Part shown: positions 43,434 to 62,948 of the stretch, in pieces
How the letters are laid out: each line of letters begins with the position of its first letter
How positions within the stretch are numbered: position 1 is the first letter of the stretch
Origin: Alphaproteobacteria bacterium
GTDB taxonomy: Bacteria; Pseudomonadota; Alphaproteobacteria; SP197
Direction of reading: 5' to 3'
NCBI GenBank assembly: GCA_964291415.2
Contig: OZ219918.1
Location: 1,088,001 to 1,152,000, forward strand
DNA: 64,000 bases
Position numbers and translations under genes: made by a program
The notes under the pieces: model-generated
Databases searched by the model: none
Seen by the model: only the letters and a program-made list of their open reading frames with translations
What the model was told of the DNA's origin: nothing

Positions 43434-43505
43434 GGTCGATCTCCTTGAAGCGCATGAAACGCGGATGGTAGCCTCCCGCTCTTCGTTCGGGAACGGGAAA
43501 CCGCC

Positions 43506-44417
43506 ATGGCCTCCAATCCTCTTCGCTGCCGCGAGCCGGAAGGAAACACTCCTCAACTCACCGACTGGGGATGCAATTCCGAGTACGGTGTCCTGACCGA
43601 CGTCCTGCTCGGGCCGGCCGACCACTTCCACTGGCTCCCGACGAGTTCCATCTCCAGGGCCACCCTCAAGCGCGGAGACCGGTTCGACGCGCAGCTGGCC
43701 ATGAAACAGCACCGCGAGATGGTCGATGCATACGAGGAAGCGGGTGTGAAGGTGCATTGGCTGGAGGCCGACTCCGAACTTCCCTACCAGGTCTTTGCCA
43801 GGGACTCCTCCTTCATGACGCCCTACGGCGCCGTGGTCACCCAGATGGCCCAGTGGTGGCGGCGTGGTGAATACGGACCGGTCATTCGCTTCTACGTCGA
43901 CAACGGCATTCCGATCTTCGACATGGTGACGGCGGGGTCCTTCGAGGGAGGCGACTTCGACATCATCGAGCCGGGATGCGTCCTCATCGGCTGGTGCGGC
44001 GAACGCACCCAGGAACAGTCGGCGCATCAGGTGGGACAGTGGTTCGAGAGGGAGGGCTGGGAAGTCCGCGTGACACCGATTGCCGAACACTACGTGCACA
44101 TCGATCTCATGGTCTGCATGTTGGCCGAGAAACTCTGCGCGGTCTGTCTCGACACGACCGAACCGGCCACCGTCGACTGGCTGAAGGCCAAGGGAATCGA
44201 GATCGTGCCGGTGAACTATCCCGACACCATGGCGCTGGCCTGCAACGTGGTCTCCCTGGGCAACGACCGGGTCATTGCGCCAGCCCATGCCAGGGATCTG
44301 GTGGACCGTCTGAAGGCCCTCGGTTTCACCGTCTATGACCCCGACGTGGACTGCTTCACCCGTGGCGGTGGCGGCGTCCACTGCATGGCGCAGTCGCTGC
44401 GCCGCGAACCAGTCTGA
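43506..44417 (+). CDS. Amidinotransferase/arginine deiminase/DDAH superfamily (pentein) enzyme
   Basis: SEYGVL, QVFARD, FEGGD, VHID, GGGGVHCM (catalytic Cys). Confidence 0.88.
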   Translation: MASNPLRCREPEGNTPQLTDWGCNSEYGVLTDVLLGPADHFHWLPTSSISRATLKRGDRFDAQLAMKQHREMVDAYEEAGVKVHWLEADSELPYQVFARDSSFMTPYGAVVTQMAQWWRRGEYGPVIRFYVDNGIPIFDMVTAGSFEGGDFDIIEPGCVLIGWCGERTQEQSAHQVGQWFEREGWEVRVTPIAEHYVHIDLMVCMLAEKLCAVCLDTTEPATVDWLKAKGIEIVPVNYPDTMALACNVVSLGNDRVIAPAHARDLVDRLKALGFTVYDPDVDCFTRGGGGVHCMAQSLRREPV

Positions 44418-44430
44418 GCGGAGACCATCG

Positions 44431-45201
44431 ATGTCACAAGCGGTCATGATCGTCACCGGAGGCAGCCGCGGAATCGGTGCGGAGATTGCCCGCCTGGCCG
44501 GCAGGCGGGGCTATGATGTTGCGGTCAACTATTCCGCCTCCAGGGACCGCGCCGAAGAGGTGGCAGAGTCGATCCGGGCTGAAGGCCGCCGCGCCGCCGC
44601 CATCCGTGCCGACGTCTCCCGGCCCGATGACATCGAGTCTCTCTTCGAGGAGACCGACCGCCTGCTCGGCGCGCCGGCGGCGCTGGTCAACAACGCCGGA
44701 ATCTCGGTCGAGACGCCGGTGGCTGATCACGAGGTCGACGCGGTCAGGCGGATCATCGACACCAATCTCCTCGGGCCGGCGCTGACCAGTCGCCAGGCGA
44801 TCCGCCGCATGTCGACGGCAAGGGGCGGCAATGGTGGCGTGATCGTCAACGTGTCATCGATCTCCGGGGTCTACGGCGGATTGCCGGGTGACGTCGTCTA
44901 TGCCGCCACCAAGGGCGGACTCGATTCCTTCACCCTGGGTCTCGCCAAGGAAGTGGCGGGGGAGGGGATTCGCGTGTGCTGTGTGCGCCCCGGCCTCATC
45001 AAGACCGAAATCTGGGACGATGGCATGGGACAGGACGAGGTGATCGAACTCGGCGAGCGTGCCGTTCCGTTGGGCCGCATTGGCGAGGTCGGAGACATCG
45101 CCACGGCGGTCCTGTGGATGTGTTCCGACGAGGCAGCCTATGTCACGGGCGCCATTCTCAATGTCAGCGGCGGCCGCGAGACGTTCGTGCGCGGCGGCTG
45201 A
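44431..45201 (+). CDS. Short-chain dehydrogenase/reductase
   Basis: TGGSRGIG, NNAG, NVSS, YAATK, RPGLI.T. Confidence 0.93.
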   Translation: MSQAVMIVTGGSRGIGAEIARLAGRRGYDVAVNYSASRDRAEEVAESIRAEGRRAAAIRADVSRPDDIESLFEETDRLLGAPAALVNNAGISVETPVADHEVDAVRRIIDTNLLGPALTSRQAIRRMSTARGGNGGVIVNVSSISGVYGGLPGDVVYAATKGGLDSFTLGLAKEVAGEGIRVCCVRPGLIKTEIWDDGMGQDEVIELGERAVPLGRIGEVGDIATAVLWMCSDEAAYVTGAILNVSGGRETFVRGG

Positions 45202-45215
45202 TCAGGGTCTGCGGC

Positions 45216-46013
45216 CTATCGTCCGGTGAACCGGGGCTTGCGCTTTTCTGCAAAGGCGCGCGGGCCTTCCTTGGCATCGTCGCTGGCGAGCATGCGCGAG
45301 TAGATCGGCAGACCGCCTCCACGCAATGTCCGGAAGCAGTCGGGAACCGACATGTGCATGGTGTGGCGTACCGCCTCCTTGGTGGCCTGCAGCGCCAGCG
45401 GCCCGCCCTCGGCGAGGTGATCCGCGGTCTCACGGGCCCTGGTCATCAGTTCTTCCGCCTCCACGATCTCGTTGACAAGACCCCACTTGAGGGCCTCTTC
45501 GGCGCCCATGCGGCGGCCGCTGAGCAGGATGTCCATGGCGACCGAATGAGGCAGGCGCCGGGGCAGGATCTGGATGGCGCCGGCGTCGGCGATGAAGCCC
45601 ATGTGCACGTCCGGGATGAAGAACGTGGCGTGGGGCACCGCGTACTGGATGTCGCTGGCCAGGGCGATTTCCCAGCCGCCGCCCACGGCATACCCATTGA
45701 TGGCGGCAATGACCGGCTTGTAGAGATTCCACATCTCCGTAATGCCGGCGAAGCCACCGTCGACCTCGTCGTCCTCGCCGGCGCCGCCGGCATCGAAGTC
45801 GCGTGCCGCCTCCTTGAGATCCCAACCCGGAGAAAAGAACTTGTCGCCGGCGCCGGTGACGATACCCACCAGAAGATCGGGGTCGTCGCGCAATGTCGCG
45901 AAGGCCCGGGAAAGGCCCGCCGTCACCTTGCGGCCGATGGCATTGGCCGGCGGATTGTCGATGGTGATTTCGAGGACCTTGCCCCGACGTTCGCAATGGA
46001 CCACGTCACTCAT
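45216..46013 (-). CDS. Enoyl-CoA hydratase, carnitinyl-CoA dehydratase (CaiD)-like
   Basis: FFSPGWDLK, GGFAGITE, KPVIAAINGYAVGGGWE, EGPRAFAEKR. Confidence 0.88.
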   Translation of the reverse strand: MSDVVHCERRGKVLEITIDNPPANAIGRKVTAGLSRAFATLRDDPDLLVGIVTGAGDKFFSPGWDLKEAARDFDAGGAGEDDEVDGGFAGITEMWNLYKPVIAAINGYAVGGGWEIALASDIQYAVPHATFFIPDVHMGFIADAGAIQILPRRLPHSVAMDILLSGRRMGAEEALKWGLVNEIVEAEELMTRARETADHLAEGGPLALQATKEAVRHTMHMSVPDCFRTLRGGGLPIYSRMLASDDAKEGPRAFAEKRKPRFTGR

Positions 46014-46016
46014 GGT

Positions 46017-48131
46017 TCAAGTCTCCGTTCCGGTCATTCTCATCAAGCAGTCGGCAACCACGACCCCGCCACCCCGGGGCATGACGAGAAGCGGGTTGAT
46101 GTCGAGCTCCGCGAGGCTTGCAGGATGTTCTGCTGCAAGGGCGGCCACGGCCATGACTGCATCGACGAGGGCCTCCGCGTCACCAGACGGCGCCCCCCTG
46201 TACCCTTCGAGAAGGCGCGAAACCTTCAGGGATCCGATGGCCCGATGCACGTCCTCGCGTTCGAGAGGGAGAAGCAGGACGACAGCATCCTCGACAAGCT
46301 CGACGAAGGTGCCGCCGGCGCCGATGATCAGCACCTGCCCGAAGGTGCTGTCGCGTGTCACGCCGATAATCATTTCGGCCACGTGGCCGGTGACCATGGC
46401 TTCAACCAGGACCTCCCTGACACCGGTGTTGCGGACGATGGTCCCCGCCGCCCGGTCAACCTCGCGGTGATCGGTGAGGTTGAGGGCGACCCCACCGGCC
46501 TCGGTCTTGTGGGCAATCGTGGCTGACAGTGCCTTCACGACCACCGGATAGCCGATACGCTCGGCGGCGGATGCGGCTGCTGCAGGGCGGACGCACTCAC
46601 CGGACGGGATTGTCAGTCCGGAGGCGGCGAGAACCTGCTTGCCTTCCCGTTCATCAAGGGTCCGCACGTCGCCGGCAAGGGTGACCGGCGCGGCAAGGGC
46701 GCGATCACCGGGCGCCGGGCGGGACAGGAACGCGTTCCGCCTGGTGCCGTAGAGGCAGGCCCGCGCCAGGGAGAGCGTGCCCGCCCTGATGCCGTGGGTC
46801 ATGGCGATGCCGGCTTCGTGAAACTGCTTGCGGAGTCTGATGGAGGTGTTGTCGGGAAGCGACGACGTGATGACGCCGGGAATGCCGTGCCGGAGCACCG
46901 ACGTGTGGAAGGCGCGCATGGCCGCCGCGGCGCCATCATCCTGCGAGCGGGCGCGAGGCATCTGTTCCGTATCGGCGATTGCGTCGACCACCAGCAGTCC
47001 GGCGTCGATCCCCTGGCGCAGCATCACGGGAAAGATGGCTTCCAGGACGTCCTGCCGGCCCCAGTTGGAGGTGTTGTAGTCGAGTGGATTGGCAATCGTC
47101 GTGAAAGCCTGCATGTGACGGGCGATGTCGTCGCGCTGGCGCTGGTCAAGTTCCGGCAATTCGATTCCAAGGGGTTCCACGATATCGGCAACACATCCCG
47201 AATCGCCTCCTGAACATGTCATCACGGCAAGCCGGAGTCCTTCGGGAATGCCCGTCACCGACACCACCTTTGCGGTTTCCAGCAGATCCTCCGGAGTCTC
47301 AACCCGGATGATGTTGAGCCGGTCGAAGAGTGCCTGATAGAACCTGTCGTCACCGGCAAGGGATGCGGTGTGACTCATGGCCATGGAAGCGCCTTTCCTG
47401 GAGACGCCGGACTTGAGCACGATGATGGGCTTGCCGGCCTCGAGGGCGCGCACCGCGGCCCGGCTGAAAGCCGCGGCGTCGGGCAGCGTTTCCATGAAGA
47501 GAGCGAAAGAGGTGACGGCGGGATCGTCGACCAGCACCTCGATGTAGTCGGCAAAGTCGAGAACGGCCTGATTGCCGCAGGAAATGACGTGGGAGAGCGG
47601 CGTGCCGCGCCGGCCGTTGGCGACGTTGATGCAGATGTTGCCGCTCTGCCCGATGAACGCGCATCCCCTGGTGGTTCTCTCCCCCAGGGTCGGCGTCGCC
47701 ATCGCCAGGGCGCCGTTGACGAAGTTGTTGAAGCCGTAGCAGTTGGGTCCGATGACCGCGAGATTGCCTGCTCGTTGCCGGAGTTCCCCTTCCAGGGTGA
47801 GGCCTTCTCCGCCGACTTCCGCATAGCCTGCCGCATAGCAGATGGCGCCTCCGGCCCCCATGTCATCGAGTTCGGCAATCAGGTCATTGGTCATCTCCCG
47901 GTTGACCGCCAGGAAGACGACATCGGGCGGCGTATCGAGTTCGTCGATGGATCCCAGGCAACGTTCGCCAGCGATCTCCTGCCGCCGAGGATTGACGACG
48001 CGAATATCACCGGCAAACCCCAGGTTCCGGGTCGCGGCGATGGCCGGTTCGAGGAAGGAGCCGCCGATGTAGCAAATGCTGTCCGGATAAAGGGCGCGTC
48101 GAAGGTTTGCGTGACGGGCCGTGCGGGACAT
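46017..48131 (-). CDS. ADP-forming acyl-CoA synthetase (acetate-CoA ligase family)
   Basis: GPNCYG, QSGN, SCGNQA, SHTASLAG (phospho-His), NPLD, HKTEAGGV, ELDINPL. Confidence 0.9.
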   Translation of the reverse strand: MSRTARHANLRRALYPDSICYIGGSFLEPAIAATRNLGFAGDIRVVNPRRQEIAGERCLGSIDELDTPPDVVFLAVNREMTNDLIAELDDMGAGGAICYAAGYAEVGGEGLTLEGELRQRAGNLAVIGPNCYGFNNFVNGALAMATPTLGERTTRGCAFIGQSGNICINVANGRRGTPLSHVISCGNQAVLDFADYIEVLVDDPAVTSFALFMETLPDAAAFSRAAVRALEAGKPIIVLKSGVSRKGASMAMSHTASLAGDDRFYQALFDRLNIIRVETPEDLLETAKVVSVTGIPEGLRLAVMTCSGGDSGCVADIVEPLGIELPELDQRQRDDIARHMQAFTTIANPLDYNTSNWGRQDVLEAIFPVMLRQGIDAGLLVVDAIADTEQMPRARSQDDGAAAAMRAFHTSVLRHGIPGVITSSLPDNTSIRLRKQFHEAGIAMTHGIRAGTLSLARACLYGTRRNAFLSRPAPGDRALAAPVTLAGDVRTLDEREGKQVLAASGLTIPSGECVRPAAAASAAERIGYPVVVKALSATIAHKTEAGGVALNLTDHREVDRAAGTIVRNTGVREVLVEAMVTGHVAEMIIGVTRDSTFGQVLIIGAGGTFVELVEDAVVLLLPLEREDVHRAIGSLKVSRLLEGYRGAPSGDAEALVDAVMAVAALAAEHPASLAELDINPLLVMPRGGGVVVADCLMRMTGTET

Positions 48132-48257
48132 GTCAGGCGGACACCATGGAAAACGATTCGGATGGCATCGGGAACGAATGATCCCTCGCGGGCGGGCGCC
48201 GGACAAGGATGAGGGCAACACGCCAGGAGAGGCAATGCCCGTGACCAGGGCAGCGGC

Positions 48258-49514
48258 CTACCATTTGGCTGTGCGTCCCAGATCGCGGTCCATGTGGTCG
48301 CGCAAGGCCGATTCGGTCAGCACCTGGGAGGTTCTCACGACCGTCACGAAATCGCGCTGTTCGTCCATCGGCACCGGTGCGCGCCGCGTCATGCGGTAGA
48401 GGGCGAAAGCACCAAGCAGCATCATGGCCGTCGCCGGGAACCAGAAGTAGCCCGCCGGTCCGGCAATCTGCATCATCGCGCCTGCGGCGGTCGGCCCGAG
48501 GATGCCGCCGATCCCGGCGGCGAGCAGCAGCCCGCTGGAGGCGGCCACCATCTGCTCCGGTTGGAGATGATCGTTCGTGTGCGCGATCGAGAGCGAATAG
48601 AGCGGCGACAGGAAACACCCGACAACCGCCACGGCGATGATCTGAATCAGGGGTTCAGGACCGGCGAAAAGAGCCGCAAGGCTGGCGGCGGCACCGCCCG
48701 CGAATGCCACGATCGTCAGGATCTTCCGGCGATCGAAGCGATCGCTCAGTCGGCCGATCGGCCAGATCAGGATCATGCCGCCGACGATGGTGGCCGCCGT
48801 GAAGAGGGAGACATTGCCGACGTCCATGCCAAGGCCCGTGCCGTAGAGTGACGCCAGCCAGACAAGAGCCCCCGAGGTGGCGCCATTGGTGAAGCAGCCG
48901 GCGACTCCCAGTGGCGATGTTCTCACCAGTTCGACGACTCCGAGTCTGGCCGGGTTCTCGAAGTGTGGTGCGGGATAGGTGGTGAGTGACACCGGCAACA
49001 CGGCCAGGGAGACGAGGATGGAAGCGGTCATGAAGAGTAGAGGACCGGCGGGGTCCGCAACATTGAGGAGCAGAGGACCGACTGCCATCGAGCCGGACAT
49101 GGCGATGATGTAGACTCCGAGCAACTGACCGCGTGTCTCGTTTGTCGAGCGGTCGTTCAGCCAGCTTTCGGCGATGATGAAGAGGCCGATGTTGCAGAAG
49201 CCGGTGAGAATTCGCAGCACGGCCCACGTGGCGGCATCGACGACAACCGCGTGGCCCAGGGCCGAGATCGAGGCCAGCGAGGCAAGCGCCGTGAACACGC
49301 GGATGTGACCCACGCGCTCTACAAGACGGGGCACCGCGAGAGCACCGAGGACAAACCCGAAGTAGTAGCTCGACATGATGATGCCGGTCACAAGATTCGG
49401 AAAGCCGGCCGACGGCGCTCGCAGGCCGAGAAGCGAGCCTTGAAGGGCGTTGCCGGACATCAGCAGGGAGATGCTGACGATGACCGCCCAGACGCCGAAG
49501 ATCGCTGCAATCAA
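48258..49514 (-). CDS. MFS transporter (YcaD-like)
   Basis: RVGHIRVF, AESWLN, RGQLLG, GRLSDRFDRR, LYSLSIAHTND; about 12 TM segments. Confidence 0.92.
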   Translation of the reverse strand: MIAAIFGVWAVIVSISLLMSGNALQGSLLGLRAPSAGFPNLVTGIIMSSYYFGFVLGALAVPRLVERVGHIRVFTALASLASISALGHAVVVDAATWAVLRILTGFCNIGLFIIAESWLNDRSTNETRGQLLGVYIIAMSGSMAVGPLLLNVADPAGPLLFMTASILVSLAVLPVSLTTYPAPHFENPARLGVVELVRTSPLGVAGCFTNGATSGALVWLASLYGTGLGMDVGNVSLFTAATIVGGMILIWPIGRLSDRFDRRKILTIVAFAGGAAASLAALFAGPEPLIQIIAVAVVGCFLSPLYSLSIAHTNDHLQPEQMVAASSGLLLAAGIGGILGPTAAGAMMQIAGPAGYFWFPATAMMLLGAFALYRMTRRAPVPMDEQRDFVTVVRTSQVLTESALRDHMDRDLGRTAKW

Positions 49515-49640
49515 GGGTGTGGGTTCCCGCGCAGATGAGGCTGCCGCCTATGCCCTATCGGAGCGCATGAATCCAGTCCGAAAGTGCCGGTTTCCGGCAT
49601 CGCGCCTGACAGCGACCGGGCCGGGTTCGGGCCGAAGCCG

Positions 49641-51350
49641 TCACATGAGGAAGTAGCGCCTGGAGAGAGCCACGTGATGGATGGGAGGGACGTCGAGGAG
49701 AACGCCGTCGGCATGGACTTCGAAGGTTCCCGGATCGACCCAGATCTGCGGCAGGGCGTCATTGCGAACCATGTCCTTTTTGGAAAGATGCCGTGTACCC
49801 GTTGCCGGCAGCAATGTCCGGCCGAGGCCGAGCCTTCGATCGAGACCGCTGTCGATGGCGAGGGGATGGACGAAGACGAACGACACCCGGTCGGGAGCGC
49901 CGCCGCAGGCGGGCCAGGACTCGCGATACACGAGGGGTTCGCTTATCGACAGCGATGCCGCCGCCGTGCCGGACGGACTCCACACCTCGGCGCCAGCCTT
50001 GAAGACCTGCTGTGCCTTGACCCCGAAGAACTCCGGGCGCCACAGCACGATATCGGCGATCTTGCCGACCTCGATGCTGCCGACATCTCCGGCGATGCCG
50101 AAGGTGATGGCCGGGTTGATGGTCACCTTGGCGAGGTAACGCAGGATCCGGGCATTGTCCGCGTTGTCGAAGGGTTCGTCGCCAAGCGGTCCCCGGCGAT
50201 CCTTCATCGCTGAGGCGAGGCGCCACATGCCAGCGATCACATCCATCACCCGCCCCATCCCCTCGGCGTCGGAGCCGGCCATGGAGATGGCGCCGAGGTC
50301 GTGCAGCACGTCTTCGGCGGCCATGGACTGGGGGCGCAGCCGGCTCTCGGCGAAGGCGACATCCTCCGGCACGTCCCCTCGCAGGGTATGGCACAGCATC
50401 ATCATGTCCATGTGCTCGCCCAGGGCATTGAGGGTGAAGGGGTTCGTGGGTGTGGTGGAGGACGGCAGGCAATGGCGTTCTCCGTTGCAGCGAATGATGT
50501 CGGGCGCATGTCCGCCACCGGCGCCCTCGGTGTGGTACATGTGAATGGTACGGCCCGCGATGGCCTCCATCGTTGCCTCGTAAAACCCCGATTCGTTCAT
50601 CGAGTCGGTGTGCAGCTGGACCTGGAAGTCCAGCTGGTCGGCAACGCCGAGACAGGTGTCGATGAGAGCCGGCGTGGCCCCGAGGTCCTCGTGGATCTTC
50701 ACGCCAATGACACCGGAGGCCAGCTGTTCCTCGATGGCGGCAGGCCGGCTGGCGCCGCCGCGGCTGAAGAGACCGAAGTTCATCGGATAGCGCCGGATCG
50801 CCTGCAGCATGATGGCGTTCGCCCAGCCGCCGCCGCTGTCGGTGGTCCAGCACCCCGCAAATCCACCGCCGATCATCGTGGTGAGGCCGGCAGAAAGCGC
50901 GTGCCACACCTCGGCCGGCTGCAGGTAGTGGGCATGGACGTCGATTCCTCCCGGCGTGGCGATCAGCCCCTGTCCGTTGATGTGCTTGGTTCCCGGACCG
51001 ATCACCATGTCCGGCGAGACACCCGCCATGAAGGCGGGATTGCCGGCCTTGCCGATGGCATGGATGCGACCGTCGCGCACACCGACGTCCGCCTTGTAGA
51101 TGCCGCCGACAGGGCACATGACCACGACATTGCAGAAGACGGTCTCGAGAGCTCCCTCGTCGAGTCTGAGGCCGCCGTGAATGCCGGCGTCGCCACGCAG
51201 GGTCTTGCCGAGGCCCGTGATCCCTTCCTCGCCATGGGTGGCGTGGTCGTGTTCGATGCGGGCAATGAGGCTGGTGTCGCCAAGGCGGATGCGGTCTCCC
51301 GTGGTGGGTCCGAAGAGGGCCGCATAGCGTTCCCGGGTCATCGTTGCCAT
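49641..51350 (-). CDS. ureC: Urease alpha-subunit paralogue (divergent pocket)
   Basis: FGPTTGDRIRLGDT, GGIDVHAH, KIHED, LHTD..NESG, HTEGAGGGHAPD, LCH, SD..GMGR, TINPA, RYFL. Confidence 0.9.
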   Translation of the reverse strand: MATMTRERYAALFGPTTGDRIRLGDTSLIARIEHDHATHGEEGITGLGKTLRGDAGIHGGLRLDEGALETVFCNVVVMCPVGGIYKADVGVRDGRIHAIGKAGNPAFMAGVSPDMVIGPGTKHINGQGLIATPGGIDVHAHYLQPAEVWHALSAGLTTMIGGGFAGCWTTDSGGGWANAIMLQAIRRYPMNFGLFSRGGASRPAAIEEQLASGVIGVKIHEDLGATPALIDTCLGVADQLDFQVQLHTDSMNESGFYEATMEAIAGRTIHMYHTEGAGGGHAPDIIRCNGERHCLPSSTTPTNPFTLNALGEHMDMMMLCHTLRGDVPEDVAFAESRLRPQSMAAEDVLHDLGAISMAGSDAEGMGRVMDVIAGMWRLASAMKDRRGPLGDEPFDNADNARILRYLAKVTINPAITFGIAGDVGSIEVGKIADIVLWRPEFFGVKAQQVFKAGAEVWSPSGTAAASLSISEPLVYRESWPACGGAPDRVSFVFVHPLAIDSGLDRRLGLGRTLLPATGTRHLSKKDMVRNDALPQIWVDPGTFEVHADGVLLDVPPIHHVALSRRYFLM

Positions 51351-51352
51351 GG

Positions 51353-52048
51353 TCAGGCCCCCCGGAATCCGCGCTCGCGGGCCCGGGCGAGGGCCCGCTC
51401 CCGGACATCCGGATCGTGGATGTTGCCCTCGGTAAGGCGATTGAACCCCTGGATGTCACCGCTTCCGGCGATGGCGGTCAGCATCACAGTGCGGTGTTCG
51501 CCCGGATCGAACCGGGCGCTCGCTCCGGCGGGAAGATCAAGACGCCTGCCGAAGGCCGCAGCACGATCGAACTCGAGGTCGCGGTTGGCCTCGAAGAAGT
51601 GATAGTGGCTGGCCACGTGGATCGGCCGGTCGCCGTGGTTGAGAACAGTGAGTTCGGTCTTGGCGCTGCCGTCGTTGAGAGTGATGTCGCCCTCGCCAAC
51701 CAGCAATTCTCCGGGACGGCAGGCGGTATCCGACGCCTGGATTCCAGGACGAACCGGTTGCCAGACGGTGACTGTCTTCAGGCCGTCGTCGAACTGGGCA
51801 TCGACGTTGACGAGATCGATCATCTCCGCCACGCCGGGGAGTACGTCATCGGTCGTCAGGAGTGCCGCGGCGGCACTGCGGACCTCGGCCAGCGTGCGCC
51901 CGTCACGGGCGGCCTCCATGATTTCGTCGGCGATCAGCGCCACCGCCTCGGGCTGATTCAGCCTGAGGCCACGGGCCCTTCGCTTGCGTGCGAGCTCCGC
52001 CGCCGTGAAGAGGGTCAAGCGGTCGATTTCCGCGGGTGTGAGCATCAT
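51353..52048 (-). CDS. ureAB: Fused urease gamma-beta subunit
   Basis: Gamma part: LTPAE...RGLRLNQPEA..ARDG. Beta part: GDRPIHVASHYHFFEAN...RLDLPAG..RFDPGE. Confidence 0.93.
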   Translation of the reverse strand: MMLTPAEIDRLTLFTAAELARKRRARGLRLNQPEAVALIADEIMEAARDGRTLAEVRSAAAALLTTDDVLPGVAEMIDLVNVDAQFDDGLKTVTVWQPVRPGIQASDTACRPGELLVGEGDITLNDGSAKTELTVLNHGDRPIHVASHYHFFEANRDLEFDRAAAFGRRLDLPAGASARFDPGEHRTVMLTAIAGSGDIQGFNRLTEGNIHDPDVRERALARARERGFRGA

Positions 52049-52104
52049 GGGTCAGGTGTTCTCCGGTGTTGCGAAGTCGGCAGGTGGCGCCATCGCCCTC
52101 TCGC

Positions 52105-52560
52105 TCAGGGGTCGAAAGCACGGTGAACGATGCGGTCGCCAGGTTCGAGACCCAGCCGCCGGGAGGTCCCGGCGAGCACCTCGAGGACACCGGCTGCCGG
52201 GGCGCCGGAAGGGATGGACGTCTCGTCGAGCGGTCGGGCGTCGGCGGCGATGGAGACGATCACTCCGTGACGGTCGAGAAAGATGATGTCGAGGGGAAGA
52301 TAGGTGTTCTTCATCCAGAAGCTGCGCGGAGCTTCCCTGGTGTAGAGAAACAGCATGCCCTCGTCTTCGGCCATGGTCTTGCGGAACATGAGCCCGCGGG
52401 AACGCTGTTGAGGCGTGACGGCGAGGTCCACATGGAATGTCCACGACAGGTTGTCCGCGGTGACGACGTCCAGGACGTCCCTGGCAAATGTGATGTCGTC
52501 CTCCGCGGCGGCCGGGAAGGCGATCGCTACCACCAGAACGCGCAGCAGCCGGGAACACAA
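52105..52560 (-). CDS. DUF192-family exported protein
   Basis: RGLMFR, GMLF, FWMKNTYLPLDIIF, VLEVLAG; signal peptide. The TTG start is uncertain. Confidence 0.85.
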   Translation of the reverse strand: MCSRLLRVLVVAIAFPAAAEDDITFARDVLDVVTADNLSWTFHVDLAVTPQQRSRGLMFRKTMAEDEGMLFLYTREAPRSFWMKNTYLPLDIIFLDRHGVIVSIAADARPLDETSIPSGAPAAGVLEVLAGTSRRLGLEPGDRIVHRAFDP

Positions 52561-52630
52561 GCCTTGTCCCCGCTTCGCTCTTGGGCATACTCGGGCGGGC
52601 CACGTGAATGGAGAGGGTGCTGTGGGTCGC

Positions 52631-53098
52631 ATGATCAGCCTCGCGGTCGTGCTCTTGGGCGTATGGTTCGTCCTCAGTGGCTCCACCGACCCGTTTCTTC
52701 TCGCATCGGGTGTCGTCAGCGTGCTGCTTGTCGTGATCATTGCCCATCGCATGGGAATGATCGACGAGGAAGGGTTTCCGATCCAGCTTCTTGGCCGGGT
52801 GATCCTCTACCTGCCCTGGCTCGTCTGCCAGATTGCGATTGCCAACCTTGCCGTGGCACGCACCATCCTTGCTCCGTCGATGAAGCTCGATTCCGGGTCG
52901 GCCTGGGTGCCGGCCAGCCAGAAGACAGCGGTGGGTCTCGTCGTGTTCGCCAATTCGATCACCCTGACTCCGGGCACTGTCTCCCTGTCGGTTCTCGAGG
53001 ACCGCATCCACGTGCACGCTCTTTCCAGGAAGAGTCTCGAAGACCTGCATCAGGGCGAAATGGATCGCCGGGTCAGCGCCGTCGAGGGCCGGCGCTGA
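52631..53098 (+). CDS. mrpE: Na+/H+ antiporter subunit E
   Basis: ANSITLTPGT, IHVHAL. Confidence 0.92.
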   Translation: MISLAVVLLGVWFVLSGSTDPFLLASGVVSVLLVVIIAHRMGMIDEEGFPIQLLGRVILYLPWLVCQIAIANLAVARTILAPSMKLDSGSAWVPASQKTAVGLVVFANSITLTPGTVSLSVLEDRIHVHALSRKSLEDLHQGEMDRRVSAVEGRR

Positions 53099-53361
53099 TG
53101 TTCGTGGCAGTGACGGCCCTGCTGGTGGCGTCCATGGCCATCACCCTGGTGCGGGTCGTGCGCGGTCCCACGCCCTACGACCGCATTCTCGGGGTCAATG
53201 TTCACGGTACGATGACCGTCCTGCTGATTGCCGTGACGGGCTACCTGACAGGGCGGCCGGATTTCCTCGACCTTTCCATTGCCTATGCCCTGCTCAACTT
53301 TGTCGGCACCCTTGCGGCGTTGAAGTACTTCAGGTTCGGCCACCTTGGAGACGAACCTTGA
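53098..53361 (+). CDS. mrpF: Na+/H+ antiporter subunit F
   Basis: GPTPYDRIL, LD..IAYALLNFVGT; TGATG coupling. Confidence 0.9.
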   Translation: MFVAVTALLVASMAITLVRVVRGPTPYDRILGVNVHGTMTVLLIAVTGYLTGRPDFLDLSIAYALLNFVGTLAALKYFRFGHLGDEP

Positions 53362-53690
53362 GCATTCTGATCGACGTCGTGAGCTGGGTCGCTCTGGTGG
53401 CCGGCGGTCTGTTGATGGTGACGAGTGCGCTCGGCATGGTGCGCCTGCCGAATCTCTTCACGAGACTTCATGCCGGCAGTCTGGCCGATACAGGCGGCGT
53501 GGGCCTGATCCTGCTGGGCCTCGTCCTGCAGACCGAACCGGGCCTCAATACACTGAAGCTGTTCCTGATCGGTTTCGTGCTGTTCCTGACGACACCGGCC
53601 GCCAGCCACGCCGTGGGGCACGCGGCGCTTCTCGGAGGTCTCTCCCCCGATTCCGGAAATGCGGACGACAGCCAGAGCACGGGTTCGTGA
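53358..53690 (+). CDS. mrpG: Na+/H+ antiporter subunit G
   Basis: GMVRLPNLFTRLHA, TTPAASHA. Confidence 0.92.
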   Translation: MSILIDVVSWVALVAGGLLMVTSALGMVRLPNLFTRLHAGSLADTGGVGLILLGLVLQTEPGLNTLKLFLIGFVLFLTTPAASHAVGHAALLGGLSPDSGNADDSQSTGS

Positions 53691-54232
53691 CGGAAGAGTT
53701 TTCCATTTTCGGACTTGTCGTCCTGCTGATCGTCCTGGCGCTCGCCATCGTCAGGCTGACCAACCTGCTGGCGGTCGCCATTCTGGCCGGCGCCATGAGT
53801 TTCATTCTGGCGACGGCCTACACGCTGCTCGATGCCGTCGACGTTGCCTTTACGGAAGCCGTGGTGGGCGCCGGCATTTCCCTTGCCCTCATGCTCGCGG
53901 CGATCTCGTTGACGACGCGCCAGGAAGCACCGTGGCGGCGACGGTCTTCAGAACGGATCCTGGCGCTCCTGGTGAGCCTCGCATCCGGTGCGGGCCTTCT
54001 CTATGCCACCCTCGACATGCCGCTCCTCGGGGATCCGGCATCCCCGGCCAACCTTCATGTCGCGGCCCGCTACATCGCCGAGAGTCCGGCGAGCACCGGG
54101 GTTCCCAACATGGTGACGGCGATCCTTGCCAGTTATCGGGGCTTCGACACGCTGGGGGAGGTCGCGGTGATCTTCACGGCCGGTATTGGCGTCATTGCCC
54201 TGCTGCGGCACTGGCGCAAGGGTGAGGCATGA
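53687..54232 (+). CDS. Mrp subunit B-related protein (DUF4040; corresponds to the MrpA C-terminal region)
   Basis: DVAFTEAVVGAG, NMVTAILASYRGFDTLGE. Confidence 0.88.
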   Translation: MTEEFSIFGLVVLLIVLALAIVRLTNLLAVAILAGAMSFILATAYTLLDAVDVAFTEAVVGAGISLALMLAAISLTTRQEAPWRRRSSERILALLVSLASGAGLLYATLDMPLLGDPASPANLHVAARYIAESPASTGVPNMVTAILASYRGFDTLGEVAVIFTAGIGVIALLRHWRKGEA

Positions 54233-54654
54233 ACGAGTTCATTCTTGTTCGCGTGGTCGTCAAGATCATGGTGCCGTTCATCCTCCTGTTTGCACTCTAC
54301 GTGCAGATGCACGGCGACTACGGCCCGGGCGGCGGTTTTCAGGCTGGTGTCATCTTCGCCACGGGCATCATCGTCTACACCATCGTCTTCGGAATCGGGA
54401 GAGCCGTCGAGGCTGTGCCCATGTCCGCCGTCATGGCCATGGTGTGTTGCGGGCTGATCCTCTATGCCGGCACCGGTTTTGCGACGATGGCGCTGGGTGG
54501 CGAGTACCTCAACTACAGTGTTCTCGACAGTGACGATCCCGTGCATGGACAGCATGCCGGCATCATCATCATCGAGCTCGGCGTCGGAATCACGGTCGCC
54601 GGTGTGTTGACCGCCGTCTTTCTCGTCTTTGCCGAACGCAGGGCACGGCGATGA
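54229..54654 (+). CDS. mrpB: Na+/H+ antiporter subunit B
   Basis: HGDYGPGGGFQAG, ELGVG. Confidence 0.92.
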   Translation: MNEFILVRVVVKIMVPFILLFALYVQMHGDYGPGGGFQAGVIFATGIIVYTIVFGIGRAVEAVPMSAVMAMVCCGLILYAGTGFATMALGGEYLNYSVLDSDDPVHGQHAGIIIIELGVGITVAGVLTAVFLVFAERRARR

Positions 54655-55013
54655 GTCCGGTCGATTTCGTCATCGGACATGCGTTGCAGTGGGGTTCGGT
54701 CGCACTGCTGATGATCGGACTCTACATCGTCATGACCCGCGGCAACCTCATCAAGAAAGTGGCCGGTCTCAACATCTTCCAGGGCGGCGTCTTCCTGTTC
54801 TACATCTCACTTTCCAATGTCCGCGACGGCACGGCGCCAATCGTTCATGGGGACGCGGCGCTCTATACCAACCCGCTGCCACATGTCCTCATCCTGACAG
54901 CCATCGTGGTTGCGGTGGCCACCACGTCACTGGCGCTCGCACTGATCGTGCGCATCCGCGAATCCTACGGTTCCATCGAAGAAGACGAGATGGCCAAGGT
55001 GGACCTGGACTGA
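54651..55013 (+). CDS. mrpC: Na+/H+ antiporter subunit C
   Basis: NLIKK, NPLPHVLILTAIVV. Confidence 0.93.
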   Translation: MSPVDFVIGHALQWGSVALLMIGLYIVMTRGNLIKKVAGLNIFQGGVFLFYISLSNVRDGTAPIVHGDAALYTNPLPHVLILTAIVVAVATTSLALALIVRIRESYGSIEEDEMAKVDLD

Positions 55014-55017
55014 CCGC

Positions 55018-56493
55018 ATGGGTCTGCTCCAGCAGCTTCCCGCACTCCAGGTGGCGGTGCCGCTCATCGGTGCGCCCTTGTGCGCGCTCGTGGGCAGGCC
55101 GCGCCTGGCCTGGATGTTCGCTGTCGCGGTGGCATGGATTACCTTCGCCATCTCCGTCGCGCTTCTGGAGCATGTTCTCGATGCCGGCCCCATCCACTAC
55201 ACCATGGGTGGCTGGCCCGAAATTCTCGGCATCGCCTATGTGATCGATCCTCTCAATGCCCTGGTCCTGGTCCTGGTGTCGGGCATGGCCGCGATCATCA
55301 TGCCGGCAACCCGGACCGGCATCGATGTCGAGGTGGTGCACAGGGCACGGCATCTGTTCCACACGATGGCGCTGCTCGCCCTGGCCGGCATGCTCGGCAT
55401 CGCCATTACCGGCGACATCTTCAATCTCTACGTCTTCCTCGAGATCTCGTCCCTGGCGAGCTACGCGCTCGTGGCCATGGGTATCGACCGGCGGGCGACA
55501 CGGGCGGCCTTCCACTATCTCGTGCAGGGAACCATCGGCGCCACGTTCATTCTCGTCGGCATCGGGCTTGCCTACATGATGACGGGCACCCTCAACATGG
55601 CGGACATGGCCGCCCGCCTTCCGGGCGTCAGTCACACGGCGCCAATCCAGGCCGCGCTGGCCTTCATTCTCATCGGAACGGCCATCAAGGCGGCCATCTT
55701 CCCGGCCCACTCCTGGATGCCCAACGCCTACACCTACGCGCCGTCACTGGTGTCCGCCTTCTTCGGCGCCACGGCAACCAAGATCGGCGCCTACATGCTG
55801 CTGCGCCTCGTCTACAGCGTTTTCGGTGCGGACTACGCCTTCGGGGAGATGAAGATCGGGTGGGTGCTCATACCGCTGGGGCTGGCGGGCGCTGTCGCCG
55901 GTTCCGTCGTTGCGGTGTGGCAGCACGATCTCAGGCGCATGCTTGCCTATTCCAGCGTCGCCCAGGTGGGCTACATCGCCGCCGCCATCGGCTTCGCCAA
56001 TCACGATGGCCTCATTGCCGCCATTGTCCATGTCTTCAACCACGGACTCATGAAGGGTGCGCTCTTCCTCGTCATGGCCTGCGTCATCATGAGACTGGGC
56101 AAGGCGGACATGGAGAGTTTCCGGGGCCTGGGACGGCGCATGCCGGTGACCATGGGCTGCTTTGTCGTGGCCGGCCTCTCGATGATCGGCGTTCCGGCGA
56201 CCGTGGGTTTCGTCTCCAAGTGGTATCTCGTGAGCAGCGCACTTGATGCCGGGCTGTGGCCGCTGGCCCTCGTCATCGTGGCCGCCTCCCTGATCGCGGT
56301 CATCTACATCTGGCGGGTGGTCGACGTTGCCTACTTCACGGACCCGCCTCCGGGAGCGAGAGACGAGGCGCCGGCCATGCTGGTGATACCGGCCGTGGTC
56401 CTGTGCGCGCTCTGCGTCGTGCTTGGCGTGACCACTGACCTCACGGTCGGCGTGGCGGACACCGCGGCACGACTCCTTGGAGGAGCGCCGTGA
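55018..56493 (+). CDS. mrpD: Na+/H+ antiporter subunit D, copy 1
   Basis: GDIFNLYVFLE, IKAAIFPAHSWMPNAY, RMLAYSS, NHGLMK, GFVSKW. Confidence 0.92.
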   Translation: MGLLQQLPALQVAVPLIGAPLCALVGRPRLAWMFAVAVAWITFAISVALLEHVLDAGPIHYTMGGWPEILGIAYVIDPLNALVLVLVSGMAAIIMPATRTGIDVEVVHRARHLFHTMALLALAGMLGIAITGDIFNLYVFLEISSLASYALVAMGIDRRATRAAFHYLVQGTIGATFILVGIGLAYMMTGTLNMADMAARLPGVSHTAPIQAALAFILIGTAIKAAIFPAHSWMPNAYTYAPSLVSAFFGATATKIGAYMLLRLVYSVFGADYAFGEMKIGWVLIPLGLAGAVAGSVVAVWQHDLRRMLAYSSVAQVGYIAAAIGFANHDGLIAAIVHVFNHGLMKGALFLVMACVIMRLGKADMESFRGLGRRMPVTMGCFVVAGLSMIGVPATVGFVSKWYLVSSALDAGLWPLALVIVAASLIAVIYIWRVVDVAYFTDPPPGARDEAPAMLVIPAVVLCALCVVLGVTTDLTVGVADTAARLLGGAP

Positions 56494-57953
56494 CCGGTCA
56501 GGTGCTGCTGTACGCCCTTCTCGTGCCGCTCGTCACCGCCGCAGGGGTCCTGGCGGCTCACCGCTGGCCCAACGTCAGGGAAGCGGTGAGTCTCGCCGGG
56601 GGCACGATCCTGTTCATCACGCTGGCTGTCATCGCGGGGAACAGCGACACGATACCCGAACTGGTCGTCGCGGAACCTGTTGTCGGCCTCGCGCTCAAGT
56701 TCGCCCTCGAGCCGCTGGGCGTCGCCTTCGCGCTCATGGCAAGCGGTCTGTGGGTGGTCACGACGATCTATTCGATCGGCTACATGCGCGGTCATCACGA
56801 AACGCATCAGACCCGGTTCTTCGCCTTCTTCGCCGTCGCCATCGCATCGGCGATCGGCGTGGCCCTCGCCGGCAATCTCTTCACCCTCTTCGTGTTCTAC
56901 GAGGCCTTGACTCTGTCGACTTTTCCCCTGGTCAGCCACACCGGAACGGCCCTGGCGAGAAGGGCAGGGCGCACCTATCTCGGCATCCTCATGGGAACGT
57001 CAATCGGCATGTTCCTGGTGGCGATCATCGTGACCTGGCAGGTGGCCGGGACGCTCGACTTCGTTCCCGGAGGCATTCTCGAGGGCAGGGTGACGGACCT
57101 GACCGCCGGGCTCCTGTTGGCGCTCTACGTCTTTGGCATTGGCAAGGCTGCCCTGATGCCGTTTCACCGCTGGCTGCCGGCGGCGATGGCCGCCCCGACG
57201 CCGGTGAGCGCGTTGCTTCACGCCGTCGCCGTCGTCAAGGCGGGTGTCTTCACCATTCTCAAGATCTCATGGTTCACGTTCGGTTTCGACATGCTGCAGG
57301 GTCTCCACGTCCTGGACATCCTGCAGTGGATTGCCGCCTTCACCATCGTCGCCGCATCGCTGGTGGCCATGACACGGGACAATCTCAAGGCAAGGCTCGC
57401 CTATTCGACGGTGAGCCAGCTCTCCTACATCGTCCTGGCTGCCCTGCTCGCCGGCGAAGCCGGCTTTGTGGCGGGCGGCCTTCACATGGTCACCCACGCC
57501 TTCGGCAAGATCACCCTCTTCTACTGCGCCGGGGCCATTCTCGTCGCGACCATGAAGACCCGGGTCTCGGAGCTCGATGGACTGGGACGCTCGATGCCGC
57601 TCACCATGACGGCCTTCACCATCGCCAGCCTCAGCATCATCGGCCTGCCGCCGCTGGGTGGGTTGTGGAGCAAGTGGCTGTTGTTCGAAAGCGCTCTGGA
57701 TGCCGGCCAGATGCTGTTCCTCGCCGTTCTTGCCATCAGCACCCTGCTCAACATCGGCTACCTTCTGGCCATTCCCCTGCGTGCCTTCCTGCGACCGGCA
57801 CGACAGGGAGAACCGGCCGCCTGGCGGGAGGCGCCCGTCACATGTCTCGCGGCCATGGCCATCACGTCGCTGGGCTGCCTGGCACTCTTCTTCTTCCCCG
57901 ATGCCATCACCATGTGGCTGGACAGGGTCTTCATCATGGCTGAGGTTCGCTGA
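56490..57953 (+). CDS. Na+/H+ antiporter subunit D family, copy 2
   Basis: FYEALT, KAALMPFHRWLPAAMAAPTPVSALLHAVAVVKAG, RLAYST, HAFGK. Confidence 0.9.
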   Translation: MTGQVLLYALLVPLVTAAGVLAAHRWPNVREAVSLAGGTILFITLAVIAGNSDTIPELVVAEPVVGLALKFALEPLGVAFALMASGLWVVTTIYSIGYMRGHHETHQTRFFAFFAVAIASAIGVALAGNLFTLFVFYEALTLSTFPLVSHTGTALARRAGRTYLGILMGTSIGMFLVAIIVTWQVAGTLDFVPGGILEGRVTDLTAGLLLALYVFGIGKAALMPFHRWLPAAMAAPTPVSALLHAVAVVKAGVFTILKISWFTFGFDMLQGLHVLDILQWIAAFTIVAASLVAMTRDNLKARLAYSTVSQLSYIVLAALLAGEAGFVAGGLHMVTHAFGKITLFYCAGAILVATMKTRVSELDGLGRSMPLTMTAFTIASLSIIGLPPLGGLWSKWLLFESALDAGQMLFLAVLAISTLLNIGYLLAIPLRAFLRPARQGEPAAWREAPVTCLAAMAITSLGCLALFFFPDAITMWLDRVFIMAEVR

Positions 57954-57954
57954 C

Positions 57955-58203
57955 ATGAGCGACGGGAAACGCCGTTTTCTGGACAACCCCAGAAACGTCC
58001 GCTGGATCATCCGGACGCTCTACGCTGTGTGCTTTCTGCTTGTGGCAGCCGACTTCGTGGTGCACCGGCACATCAAGCATCCCTTCGAGGCGCTGTTCGG
58101 TTTCCACGCCCTCTACGGTCTTGTCGCCTGCGTCGTCCTGGTGCTGTTGGCGCGTGAACTGCGCAGGCTCGTGATGCGCCGGGAAGATCACTACGATGAC
58201 TAG
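57955..58203 (+). CDS. Small two-TM protein within the mrp operon
   Basis: MSDGKRRFLDNPRNV...GFHALYG...MRREDHYD; tightly packed with both neighbours. Confidence 0.75.
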   Translation: MSDGKRRFLDNPRNVRWIIRTLYAVCFLLVAADFVVHRHIKHPFEALFGFHALYGLVACVVLVLLARELRRLVMRREDHYDD

Positions 58204-59893
58204 CGTGGCGCCCTTCCTGGTGTTTCTCGCCGGCGCCGCCATCGTCGCGCTGTCTCCGGCGCGAATGCGTCCCATCGTCCTCGTCGCCACCCCGGTTGTC
58301 GGTGCTGTCAACCTGTGGTTTCTCGATCCCGCCGCCATTCCGGATGCGGCCGTGATGGACTTCGTTCTTGTCCTCCACCATGGCGACCGGCTTTCGGATC
58401 TCTTTGGCTGGCTGTTTCACCTCGCGGCCCTCATTGCGGCAATCTACAGCCTTCACACGAACGATCGCCTGCAGCAGGTTGCGGCACTCGCCTATGCCGG
58501 GTGCGCTCAGGGCGCTGTCTACGCCGGCGATCTCGTGACACTCTTCCTGTTCTGGGAAGGACTGGCGCTGACGTCGGCGGCGCTGATCCTGGCGCGGCGG
58601 GCGCCGGGCTCAGTCCGGACCACCCTGCGTTACCTCGCTGTCCAGGTGACATCGGGTTTGCTGCTGCTGGCCGGCGTCACGGTGCTCCACGTCGATGGTG
58701 CGGGCACCGGCCTTTCAGTCATGGAACTCGACGGGACGGCCGCCTGGCTCATCTTCCTGGCGCTTGGCATCAAGTGCGGGTTTCCGCTGCTGCACGGCTG
58801 GATCATCGATGCCTACCCGGAAGCGACCGAAACCGGCACCGTCCTGATGAGCGCGTTCACGACGAAGATCGGGATCTATGTCCTCGCGCGGCTCTTTCCG
58901 GGAACCGAGGAGCTGATCTGGATCGGCGCCATCATGACCATGTTCCCCATCTTCTATGCCGTGATCGAGAACGATCTCAGGCGGGTTCTGTCATACAGCC
59001 TGATCAACCAGTTGGGATTCATGGTGGTCGGCATTGGCGTCGGCACCGAGATGGCCATCAACGGCGCTGTCAGTCATGCCTTCAGTCACGTTCTCTACAA
59101 GAGCCTGCTCTTCATGAGCATGGGAGCCGTGCTCTACCGCACGGGCCGCATGGGGGGGGCGGAGCTTGGCGGGCTCCATCGCACCATGCCGGCGACAACG
59201 GGCCTGTGCATTGTCGGTGCGGCGTCCATCTCGGCCTTTCCCCTGTTCTCGGGATTCGTGTCGAAAGCGATGATCATGGTCGCGGTCATCGATGAGGGCC
59301 ATGACTGGGTATGGCTTGCCCTCTTGTTTGCGTCGGCCGGGGTCTTTCACCACGCCGGCATCAAGATTCCCTTCTTCGCATTCTTCGCCCACGACTCCGG
59401 GTTGCGTCCGAAAGAAGCGCCGCCGGCGATGCTGGTGGCGATGACGATCGCTGCCGCAGCATGCATCCTGATCGGTGTGTGGCCAGGCCTTCTCTACTCG
59501 ATACTGCCCTATGGAGTGCACTACGAGCCCTACACCTGGTCTCATGTCCTCGCGCAGTGCCAGCTGCTCTTCTTCTCGGCCCTTGCCTTCACGCTGCTCA
59601 AACTCTACCGGCTCTACCCGCCGGAACTCCCGGGGGTCAATATCGATGCCGACTGGTGCTATCGTTGGCTGCTGCCGAGGCTGGCGCGTCACGCTCTCCG
59701 GCTGGCTGGCGAGGCTGCCGTGCCATTGCGCGCGGCGTCGCTGGCGCTGGTTGCCGGCGCGACCGATGTCGGCCGACGCTGGGGCGGGCCATCGGGCATC
59801 CTGGCGCGTGACCCGGTAACCGGTACCGCGTCACTGGTGGTGTTGTTCGTGTTTGCCCTCGTGCTCGTGCTGCATCTCGTGCACGGATTGTGA
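58196..59893 (+). CDS. Na+/H+ antiporter subunit D family, copy 3
   Basis: FWEG, FPLLHGWIIDAYPEAT, AFTTK, RRVLSYS, HVLYKSLLFM, GFVSK. Confidence 0.9.
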   Translation: MTSVAPFLVFLAGAAIVALSPARMRPIVLVATPVVGAVNLWFLDPAAIPDAAVMDFVLVLHHGDRLSDLFGWLFHLAALIAAIYSLHTNDRLQQVAALAYAGCAQGAVYAGDLVTLFLFWEGLALTSAALILARRAPGSVRTTLRYLAVQVTSGLLLLAGVTVLHVDGAGTGLSVMELDGTAAWLIFLALGIKCGFPLLHGWIIDAYPEATETGTVLMSAFTTKIGIYVLARLFPGTEELIWIGAIMTMFPIFYAVIENDLRRVLSYSLINQLGFMVVGIGVGTEMAINGAVSHAFSHVLYKSLLFMSMGAVLYRTGRMGGAELGGLHRTMPATTGLCIVGAASISAFPLFSGFVSKAMIMVAVIDEGHDWVWLALLFASAGVFHHAGIKIPFFAFFAHDSGLRPKEAPPAMLVAMTIAAAACILIGVWPGLLYSILPYGVHYEPYTWSHVLAQCQLLFFSALAFTLLKLYRLYPPELPGVNIDADWCYRWLLPRLARHALRLAGEAAVPLRAASLALVAGATDVGRRWGGPSGILARDPVTGTASLVVLFVFALVLVLHLVHGL

Positions 59894-62822: not shown

Positions 62823-62948
62823 GGACCGTTCTCCCTCTGTCCGGGCGGTCAGAGTCATGCCGTTCGAGGAGACAAGACACCCGCCTGGCACGGTGAATTC
62901 GACACCACATTCCGATCGCCAAGCAATTCAATACTATGCATAGACTCT

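Follow-up and report, generated by a model that had tools for sequence, protein, structure and literature searches.

Few enzyme families are considered as uniform as the ureases, and the locus described here raises the question of whether an alpha subunit that keeps the metal site of urease, but in which many pocket segments are altered, still splits urea. The locus lies in a stretch of 64,000 nucleotides (positions 1,088,001 to 1,152,000 of contig OZ219918.1, hereafter the window) from the genome of an uncultured alphaproteobacterium, G000, which consists of 5 contigs and 4.44 Mb and is rated at 8.99% contamination. Our analyses indicate, as the probable answer, that the enzyme is a genuine core nickel urease of its bacterial order, belonging to a short-loop lineage with fused gamma and beta subunits and matured by UreE, UreF, UreG and UreD (UreEFGD) from a remote site. 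The two genes concerned are the following.

51353..52048, minus strand: ureAB, fused gamma/beta small subunit of urease, 231 aa (NF009671 and Pfam)
49641..51350, minus strand: ureC of the group here called clade A, urease alpha subunit, 569 aa (TIGR01792, NF009686 and motifs)

The ureAB product matched the profile NF009671, 'bifunctional urease subunit gamma/beta', with 324.9 bits (cut-off 243) over profile positions 1-230 of 231, and showed the Pfam domains Urease_gamma at residues 1-99 and Urease_beta at residues 112-208. UreC scored 700.5 bits against TIGR01792, the equivalog profile of the urease alpha subunit (cut-off 680), and 737 bits against the subfamily profile NF009686 (cut-off 354). 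Only 2 bases lie between the end of ureAB and the start of ureC, and the GC content at third codon positions of the two reading frames (0.79-0.82) is similar to that of the other genes in the window.

UreC was compared residue by residue with Klebsiella aerogenes UreC in a HMMER alignment to the PDB chain 1ejw_C. All six metal ligands were retained, namely His139 and His141 (VHAHY), Lys218 (KIHED), His247 (QLHTD), His273 (MYHTEG) and Asp361 (GSD), together with His220, Asp222, the flap pair Cys320-His321 and Arg337. His220, Asp222, His321 and Arg337 align to K. aerogenes His219, Asp221, His320 and Arg336, which we take to be the catalytic and substrate-binding residues. The ligands and these four residues were invariant columns in an alignment of 53 sequences from all clades, whereas Cys320 was not.

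Around this site the segments of the pocket are changed. The loop after the GGG motif, GGGTGPAAGTHATTCTPG in Klebsiella, reads GGGFAGCWTTDSGG in the UreC of the window and is 4 residues shorter; HEDWG is replaced by HEDLG, the flap CHHL by CHTL, SSDSQAMGR by GSDAEGMGR, GGGKVIRDGMGQ by GLGKTLRGDAGI and NASIPTPQP by AASLSISEP. None of the four canonical pocket segments (the long GGGTGPxxGTxATTCTPG loop, HEDWG, CHHL and SQAMGR) is kept in clade-A UreC; the roles of the pocket residues, including the contacts to urea, are presumably those assigned in the structural literature on ureases. The ligands, the flap Cys-His and the six segment changes had all been listed in a preliminary description of the locus, made from its letters alone, and were confirmed by the alignment and by motif positions. 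A database search for relatives of UreC covered 5.8 billion proteins, and among the best 120 matches, which were inspected, 46 (P0005-P0050, 65-95% identical) carry the named signature, that is GGG[FWY][PA]G[CAY]-W..DSGG, HED[LIV]G, C-H-[T/S/G/M/K]-L and G[SA]D[AS][EQ]GMGR; where the sources of these 46 are named, they are alphaproteobacterial.

An AlphaFold2 model of clade-A UreC, calculated from the 53-sequence alignment, returned a predicted local distance difference test score of 91 and a predicted TM-score of 0.94, with confidence dropping over residues 277-280 and over the remodelled loop, where block 161-170 averages 75. Foldseek ranks 1-39 were all urease alpha chains (TM-score 0.91-0.97, 42-48% identity), and the next fold after them was allantoinase, at a TM-score of 0.46. 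Solved urease alpha chains, canonical nickel ureases among them, were matched with TM-scores of 0.95-0.97, a root mean square deviation of 1.5-1.8 Å and 44-48% identity, and all solved ureases that were found are of the canonical long-loop type. The TIGR01792 score, the fused partner, the invariant residues and the fold match thus place the protein within the ureases.

Phylogenetic analysis was performed with FastTree, with SH-like supports and midpoint rooting, on 239 distinct sequences that remained from 264 after identical ones had been removed. The sequences were 530-600 aa long, one eukaryotic urease being added as its alpha part only, and a representative search at 50% clustering, where ureases fall into few clusters, supplied distant outgroups only. 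Clade A was monophyletic (68 tips, support 0.999) and nested in a group of 179 tips (support 1.0) with a short loop and fused gamma and beta subunits, whose members come from Mycobacterium, Paenibacillus, Lachnospiraceae, Kordiimonadales and many alphaproteobacteria. Canonical ureases, which have the long loop, HEDWG, MVCHHL, SSDSQAMGR and NASIPTPQP, split from this short-loop group with a support of 0.994-1.0. The comparison with canonical UreC for which the preliminary description had called therefore placed clade A outside the canonical ureases.

The tree also separates lineage-wide changes from clade-specific ones. About half of those named above are common to the whole short-loop lineage, namely the loop deletion (3-4 residues), the replacement of Ala by Gly in ..QAMGR (giving GSD..GMGR) and the AAS..EP segment in place of NASIPTPQP, and the flap reads CHHL, VHHL, AHNL, AHLM, AHGL, AHRL or CHTL among its sub-clades. 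Specific to clade A are, within the GGGTGPA segment, the changes of Thr to an aromatic residue, Pro to Gly and Ala to Cys; the change of the Trp of HEDWG to Leu or Ile; the Met that replaces Leu after the ligand His247; the change of Ser-Gln to Ala-Glu directly before the Gly that replaces Ala363; and the loss of the second flap His. The position of this His varies within the clade (T, S, G, M, K, N) and is therefore not a fixed residue tuned for specificity. In total, 21 positions are at least 90% conserved and yet differ between clade A and the canonical set, which is biased towards Actinobacteria. The idea of a remodelled pocket thus stood in so far as the segments are changed, conserved in a distinct clade and under selection, but about half of the changes are lineage-wide and are found also in members with complete urease operons.

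Selection on ureC was assessed from the ratio of nonsynonymous to synonymous substitution rates (dN/dS, Nei-Gojobori) between the window gene and 13 relatives. Values of 0.059-0.202 were obtained, with 0.059-0.095 in the eight pairs with dS <0.45, and the reading frame was intact in all 14 clade-A coding sequences compared. The gene is kept across four genera, counting the basal copy of G032. Clade-A ureC is under strong purifying selection, neither decaying nor drifting; the ratio near 1 that had been proposed as a sign of decay was not observed, the values being 0.06-0.10.

The distribution of ureases was then examined in 33 genomes of the order, which belong to one family and five genera; the organisms are uncultured, their genomes are mostly metagenome-assembled, and they are kin rather than independent samples. 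UreC homologues were counted at E<=1e-100 and classed by their position in the tree or by their best BLAST match. Thirty genomes carry a UreC homologue and the same 30 each carry exactly one ureG, while G007, G010 and G031 have neither. Of these 30, 28 carry clade A, 17 clade B, 5 clade C and 4 canonical UreC; G030 has clade C only and G032 only a basal sister of clade A. Across the order clade A is constant while the other types are patchy, with up to three structural sets for one accessory set in a genome (canonical, B and A in G017; C, B and A in G021). Six genomes (G016, G019, G022, G023, G001 and G002) have clade A as their sole UreC homologue, with the same pocket motifs as in multi-copy genomes. 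A fused, single-frame ureAB stands directly 5' of ureC at all clade A, B and C loci examined, including 17 of 17 clade-A loci in the genome contigs (truncated in L020, where the contig ends), the exception being a broken clade-B copy in G000. The clade-C UreC of G027 (C1:1819367-1820893, L146) is shortened, with an open frame of 538-539 aa that covers only model positions 2-510.

The framing of the window gene as a paralogue presumed a canonical urease elsewhere in the genome, and none was found in G000. The genome search returned two UreC homologues, neither of them canonical; the second, at C1:918750-920459, belongs to clade B and reads GGGHGPL-FSIDSGG, HEDYG, MAVHHL and GSDSMGMGR. The ureAB of this clade-B pair (C1, about 918060-918750; L001 805-1438) is split, residues 1-139 being in one frame and residues 127-215 in another, while the same gene is one frame in every relative examined. 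It is thus either a pseudogene or the product of an assembly indel and, because of this split, clade A may be the only intact urease of G000, an assembly error being the alternative. Three single-contig relatives (G008, G025 and G027) likewise hold clades A and B together.

No ureD, ureE, ureF or ureG was found within the window. The accessory genes of G000 form a cluster of their own, ureE-ureF-ureG-ureD, remote from it at C2:512671-515311 (loci L005 and L172), in which ureF is followed by ureG after 16 bp, at exactly the place where G032 and G030 carry ureAB and ureC; the UreE of G000 is of the same NF009752 subtype as that of G032. The order ureE-ureF-ure(AB)-ureC-ureG-ureD occurs in G032 and G030, and in G000 the same genes lie at separate loci. 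Across the order, ureE, ureF, ureG and ureD were clustered in 26 of the 30 genomes, with ureF directly adjoining ureG in 25 of the 26 and a gap of about 270 bases in G017; in the flanks of G020 and G029 only ureG and ureD were seen. No ureC occurred in the flanks of the accessory clusters, except in G030 and G032, where it adjoins ureG. The sole-copy genomes keep their accessory genes, with E-F-G-D in five of the six and F-G-D within the flank fetched for G022.

Both operon-bearing genomes are informative. G032, a 100%-complete genome, has as its sole UreC the sister of clade A, with MLCHNL, HEDLG and GGGFPGA, in a complete ureE-ureF-ureAB-ureC-ureG-ureD operon, which favours a urea-splitting role. 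The clade-C genes of G030 show the same order and are preceded by formamidase FmdA, UrtB and a UrtA-like binding protein (450 bits, cut-off 493). On the simplest history, the ancestral operon would have been E-F-(AB)-C-G-D; the structural pair would have moved out of it and increased in number, one accessory set remaining in place. The co-occurrence of UreC and ureG in 30 of 30 genomes, together with the accessory clusters kept by the genomes with clade A only, favours a nickel urease.

Supply of urea was considered in five genomes, G000 and four with clade A as their sole UreC. The window itself holds three genes for guanidino compounds, which would feed urea:

61860-62891, minus strand: agmatinase-family gene
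41811-43439, minus strand: 5-guanidino-2-oxopentanoate decarboxylase-type thiamine pyrophosphate enzyme (571 bits, cut-off 500)
43506-44417, plus strand: DDAH-like guanidino-modifying gene

Matches to the arginase/agmatinase family numbered 11, 10, 18, 10 and 17 in the five genomes (these are matches and not gene counts, and several of those in G023 and G016 are fragments or contain stops), and the lineage looks specialised in nitrogen from guanidino compounds. Urea carboxylase did not exceed its cut-off in any of the five, the best matches spanning the biotin-carboxylase part only. The main argument follows from these two results: an organism that sets urea free from many guanidino compounds needs a urease, and since at least in G023 and G016 no candidate other than clade A was found, clade A would split urea. 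We infer urea hydrolysis by clade A, then, from sole-copy genomes that are rich in ureohydrolase matches and in which no urea carboxylase exceeds its cut-off.

Taken together, these data suggest how the enzyme may work. UreAB and UreC would form the scaffold typical of ureases, and two metal ions would be held by carbamylated Lys218, His139, His141, His247, His273 and Asp361, while His220, Asp222, the flap His321 and Arg337 would hydrolyse urea as in canonical ureases. The metal centre is predicted to be built by the single remote ureE-F-G-D set (C2, 512671-515311). Nickel as the metal, UreEFGD as the maturation proteins and urea as the substrate are what we infer from the gene distribution, synteny, selection, phylogeny, fold and sequence shown above. 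Clade A would be the vertically kept core urease of the order, with clades B and C and the canonical enzymes as variable extras, and it probably mineralises the urea released by the many ureohydrolases of the arginase family.

The surroundings of the pair were inspected as well. Directly downstream lies a co-directional transporter gene of the major facilitator superfamily (MFS), 126 bp 3' of ureC:

48258..49514, minus strand: MFS transporter, 418 aa (Pfam MFS_1; NF002962 at E 8.6e-35, below the cut-off of that profile)

An MFS gene was found at most 5 kb 3' of clade-A ureC at 15 of 17 loci, one of the others being too short to tell and one lacking it, and none was present within 8 kb of clade-A ureC in the genus g3. 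It is a conserved neighbour within one genus and may not belong to the urease unit. Further 3' lie genes for an NDP-forming acyl-CoA synthetase, a CaiD-like crotonase, a short-chain dehydrogenase/reductase and the DDAH-like protein, syntenic within one genus only, and the neighbours in g3 are class III aminotransferase, GNAT, M24 creatinase-like and FMO-like genes. The neighbourhood was considered as a clue to the substrate and rejected, since the synteny is confined to one genus and differs in g3. Insertions of low GC content (45-47%) part ureC from the MFS gene in L018 (11753-14374, equal to L152 10744-13365) and L153 (6905-8916), and that of L018/L152 carries an Eco57I-like type IIG restriction-modification gene with HSDR_N, N6_Mtase and Eco57I domains.

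On the other side, a DUF192 gene (52105-52752, minus strand) stands directly 5' of ureAB, its long open reading frame overlapping the start of a divergent Mrp-type Na+/H+ antiporter operon (52415-59893, plus strand) with MnhE, MnhG, MbhD/E-like, MnhB and other genes. The distance from DUF192 to ureAB is 2.5-3.5 kb in three relatives, so that the gene is probably outside the urease unit. An Rfam scan of the window returned no family at the gathering score and hence no riboswitch clue. Scanning of positions 45000-53500 for promoters and terminators recovered no promoter-like site and a single terminator-like one, below the numbers in shuffled sequences, and a sigma-54-like pattern 5' of ureAB was not matched in any of 13 sequences.

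The same stretch was also found in environmental data. Pieces of contigs 97-99% identical to positions 46000-53000 occur in runs of a coral reef metagenome (X3) and of sponge metagenomes (X4, X13), and 12 of the 15 runs listed as containing this stretch are labelled sponge metagenome. X13 is on record as a metatranscriptome, and its contigs of 244-1029 nt, with 3-18 differences, fall on ureC, ureAB, the acyl-CoA synthetase gene and the DUF192/MnhE region. These contigs show neither level nor strand, and DNA is possible in such libraries; they were not counted as proof of expression.

Several observations weigh against a genuine urease and have to be set against the evidence above. The UreC of the window exceeds the TIGR01792 cut-off by only 20 bits, and its clade-specific conserved substitutions, as judged from the alignment, appear to adjoin the residues that are assigned to urea contact in ureases. 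Of the 28 genomes with clade A, 22 also have one or two other urease types on the same accessory set, which is what sub-functionalisation would look like. A split cluster of biotin carboxylase, KipI and KipA genes is present in three of the five genomes searched (G000, G019 and G022), far below the urea carboxylase cut-off, so that an alternative route for urea stays conceivable in these three; in G000 it comprises four genes (C1 310963-314345), for a 79-aa protein like the biotin carboxyl carrier protein, a biotin carboxylase and two KipI/KipA-like pieces, and no such pieces were listed for G023 and G016. UrtA did not exceed its cut-off in any of the 33 genomes and HupE/UreJ was not found in the five, so no recognised importer of urea or nickel is identified by these searches, and the neighbour of clade-A ureC is an uncharacterised MFS protein rather than a recognised urea transporter. 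Among the PDB and Foldseek matches none exceeded 48% identity and none was a solved structure of the short-loop lineage; as no Foldseek match came closer than 42-48%, the short-loop lineage has no solved member. The full-text literature, with subscription journals and supplements outside its coverage, returned no biochemical assay of any short-loop member, and a 'urease-like operon' is listed, in a table only, in PMC2680597.

These points bear most directly on the possibility that the protein is a nickel hydrolase on the urease scaffold whose preferred substrate has shifted, or whose range has widened, to an N-substituted urea, an N-carbamoyl amine, guanidine or a short amide, which we consider unlikely but worth weighing. 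The remodelled loop with Leu223, Thr322 and Glu363 would then reshape the pocket, and the adjacent MFS protein would import the compound or its precursor; there is an equally small chance that the nearby DDAH-like enzyme makes such an N-substituted urea or N-carbamoyl amine out of guanidino compounds, or that guanidine itself is the substrate, with maturation by the same UreEFGD that serves true ureases of the cell. Conserved substitutions beside the assigned urea contacts under strong purifying selection, the separation of clade A from canonical ureases, its coexistence with other urease types, the within-genus link to the MFS gene and the DDAH-like and guanidino-acid genes nearby would all agree with such a shift, and Glu363, a new negative charge beside the ligand Asp361, could favour a cationic substrate. 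However, the same pocket is that of the sole UreC in six genomes that keep ureF, ureG and ureD, the four sole-copy genomes searched abound in ureohydrolase matches while none shows a urea carboxylase above its cut-off, and a sister branch with most of the same changes sits in a complete urease operon. Moreover, the residue in place of the second flap His varies and is thus not one tuned for specificity, the MFS linkage is limited to one genus and missing in g3, and the window contains no riboswitch or other clue to a ligand. The preliminary description had proposed an amidohydrolase for another substrate, mis-annotated as urease, and on this evidence that proposal is not supported. The protein could also be a specialised isozyme, still a urease, whose affinity, pH optimum or regulation is unlike that of the clade-B, clade-C and canonical enzymes and which is retained beside them to handle high or low urea flux. 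This seems improbable as a separate explanation and is a refinement of the genuine core urease rather than a true alternative to it: the multiple structural sets on one accessory set in G017 and G021, with clade A constant, fit it, and substitutions at the pocket edge and flap are of a kind that would be expected to alter kinetics and not chemistry, but the promoter scan and the sigma-54-like search gave no regulatory support.

The absence of ureD, ureE, ureF and ureG from the window could instead point to a nickel-independent urease in no need of accessory proteins, such as the iron enzyme UreA2B2 of Helicobacter mustelae, which likewise has two subunits and whose chain 3qga_C was among the top PDB matches. 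That chain, at 561 bits, matched no better than the nickel ureases (551-563 bits), and the pocket motifs of UreB2 are the canonical ones. UreC and ureG were present together in 30 of 30 genomes and absent together in 3 of 3, and in six genomes UreEFGD has no possible client other than clade A; since clade A always co-occurs with ureG, independence from accessory proteins is highly unlikely. Least credible of all is a decaying or inactive remnant of a urease, for which the TIGR01792 score barely over the cut-off might be quoted; intact frames in 14 of 14 sequences, dN/dS of 0.06-0.20, invariant catalytic residues and presence in four genera effectively refute it.

The locus is part of a large, phylogenetically separate lineage whose members carry the label 'urease' everywhere and have apparently never been assayed, and in an uncultured alphaproteobacterial order with unusually many ureohydrolases that release urea, clade A is the urease that is constantly present. 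Should clade A prove to be an ordinary urease, a pocket regarded as 'invariant' would tolerate a great deal of change, and as many as three different structural enzymes could depend on a single UreEFGD set. Otherwise the annotation of the short-loop lineage would have to be revised across many phyla, and a shifted substrate would make clade A the first natural enzyme of the urease family with a physiological substrate other than urea.

Compared with canonical nickel ureases (K. aerogenes UreABC, PDB 1EJW/2KAU; Sporosarcina pasteurii; Helicobacter pylori; jack bean), the clade-A enzyme has the same alpha fold, the six ligands, the catalytic His/Asp/His/Arg and gamma and beta domains, and UreE, UreF, UreG and UreD are encoded in G000. 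Unlike them, it has a loop after GGG that is 4 residues shorter, HEDLG, CHTL and AEGMGR, its gamma and beta subunits are fused, its structural genes lie apart from the accessory genes, and it branches outside the canonical group. With the iron urease UreA2B2 of H. mustelae (PDB 3QGA, 561 bits) it shares the two subunits and the lack of adjacent accessory genes, but UreB2 has the long loop, HEDWG, CHHL and SSDSQAMGR, and clade A is always accompanied by ureG.

The closest likeness is with a third type of urease cluster, ureEF(AB)CGD, described in 2008 from phylogenomics only in Bradyrhizobium BTAi1 and P. syringae B728a; the same report also gives ure(AB)C-only clusters in Streptomyces (PMC2492869). 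The two systems have in common the ureA-ureB fusion, the E-F-(AB)-C-G-D order seen in the relatives G032 and G030, and the stand-alone (AB)C pair as in Streptomyces. From this architecture and the NF009671 match, with the named proteins compared by their description, clade A would belong to the same lineage as the published type. It differs from the type, as described there, in that the accessory operon of G000 is E-F-G-D and carries no structural genes, in that the accessory set of the order serves up to three dispersed structural pairs, and in the clade-A signature, [FWY][PA]GC-W, HED[LI]G, CH[TSGMK]L and D[AS]EG.

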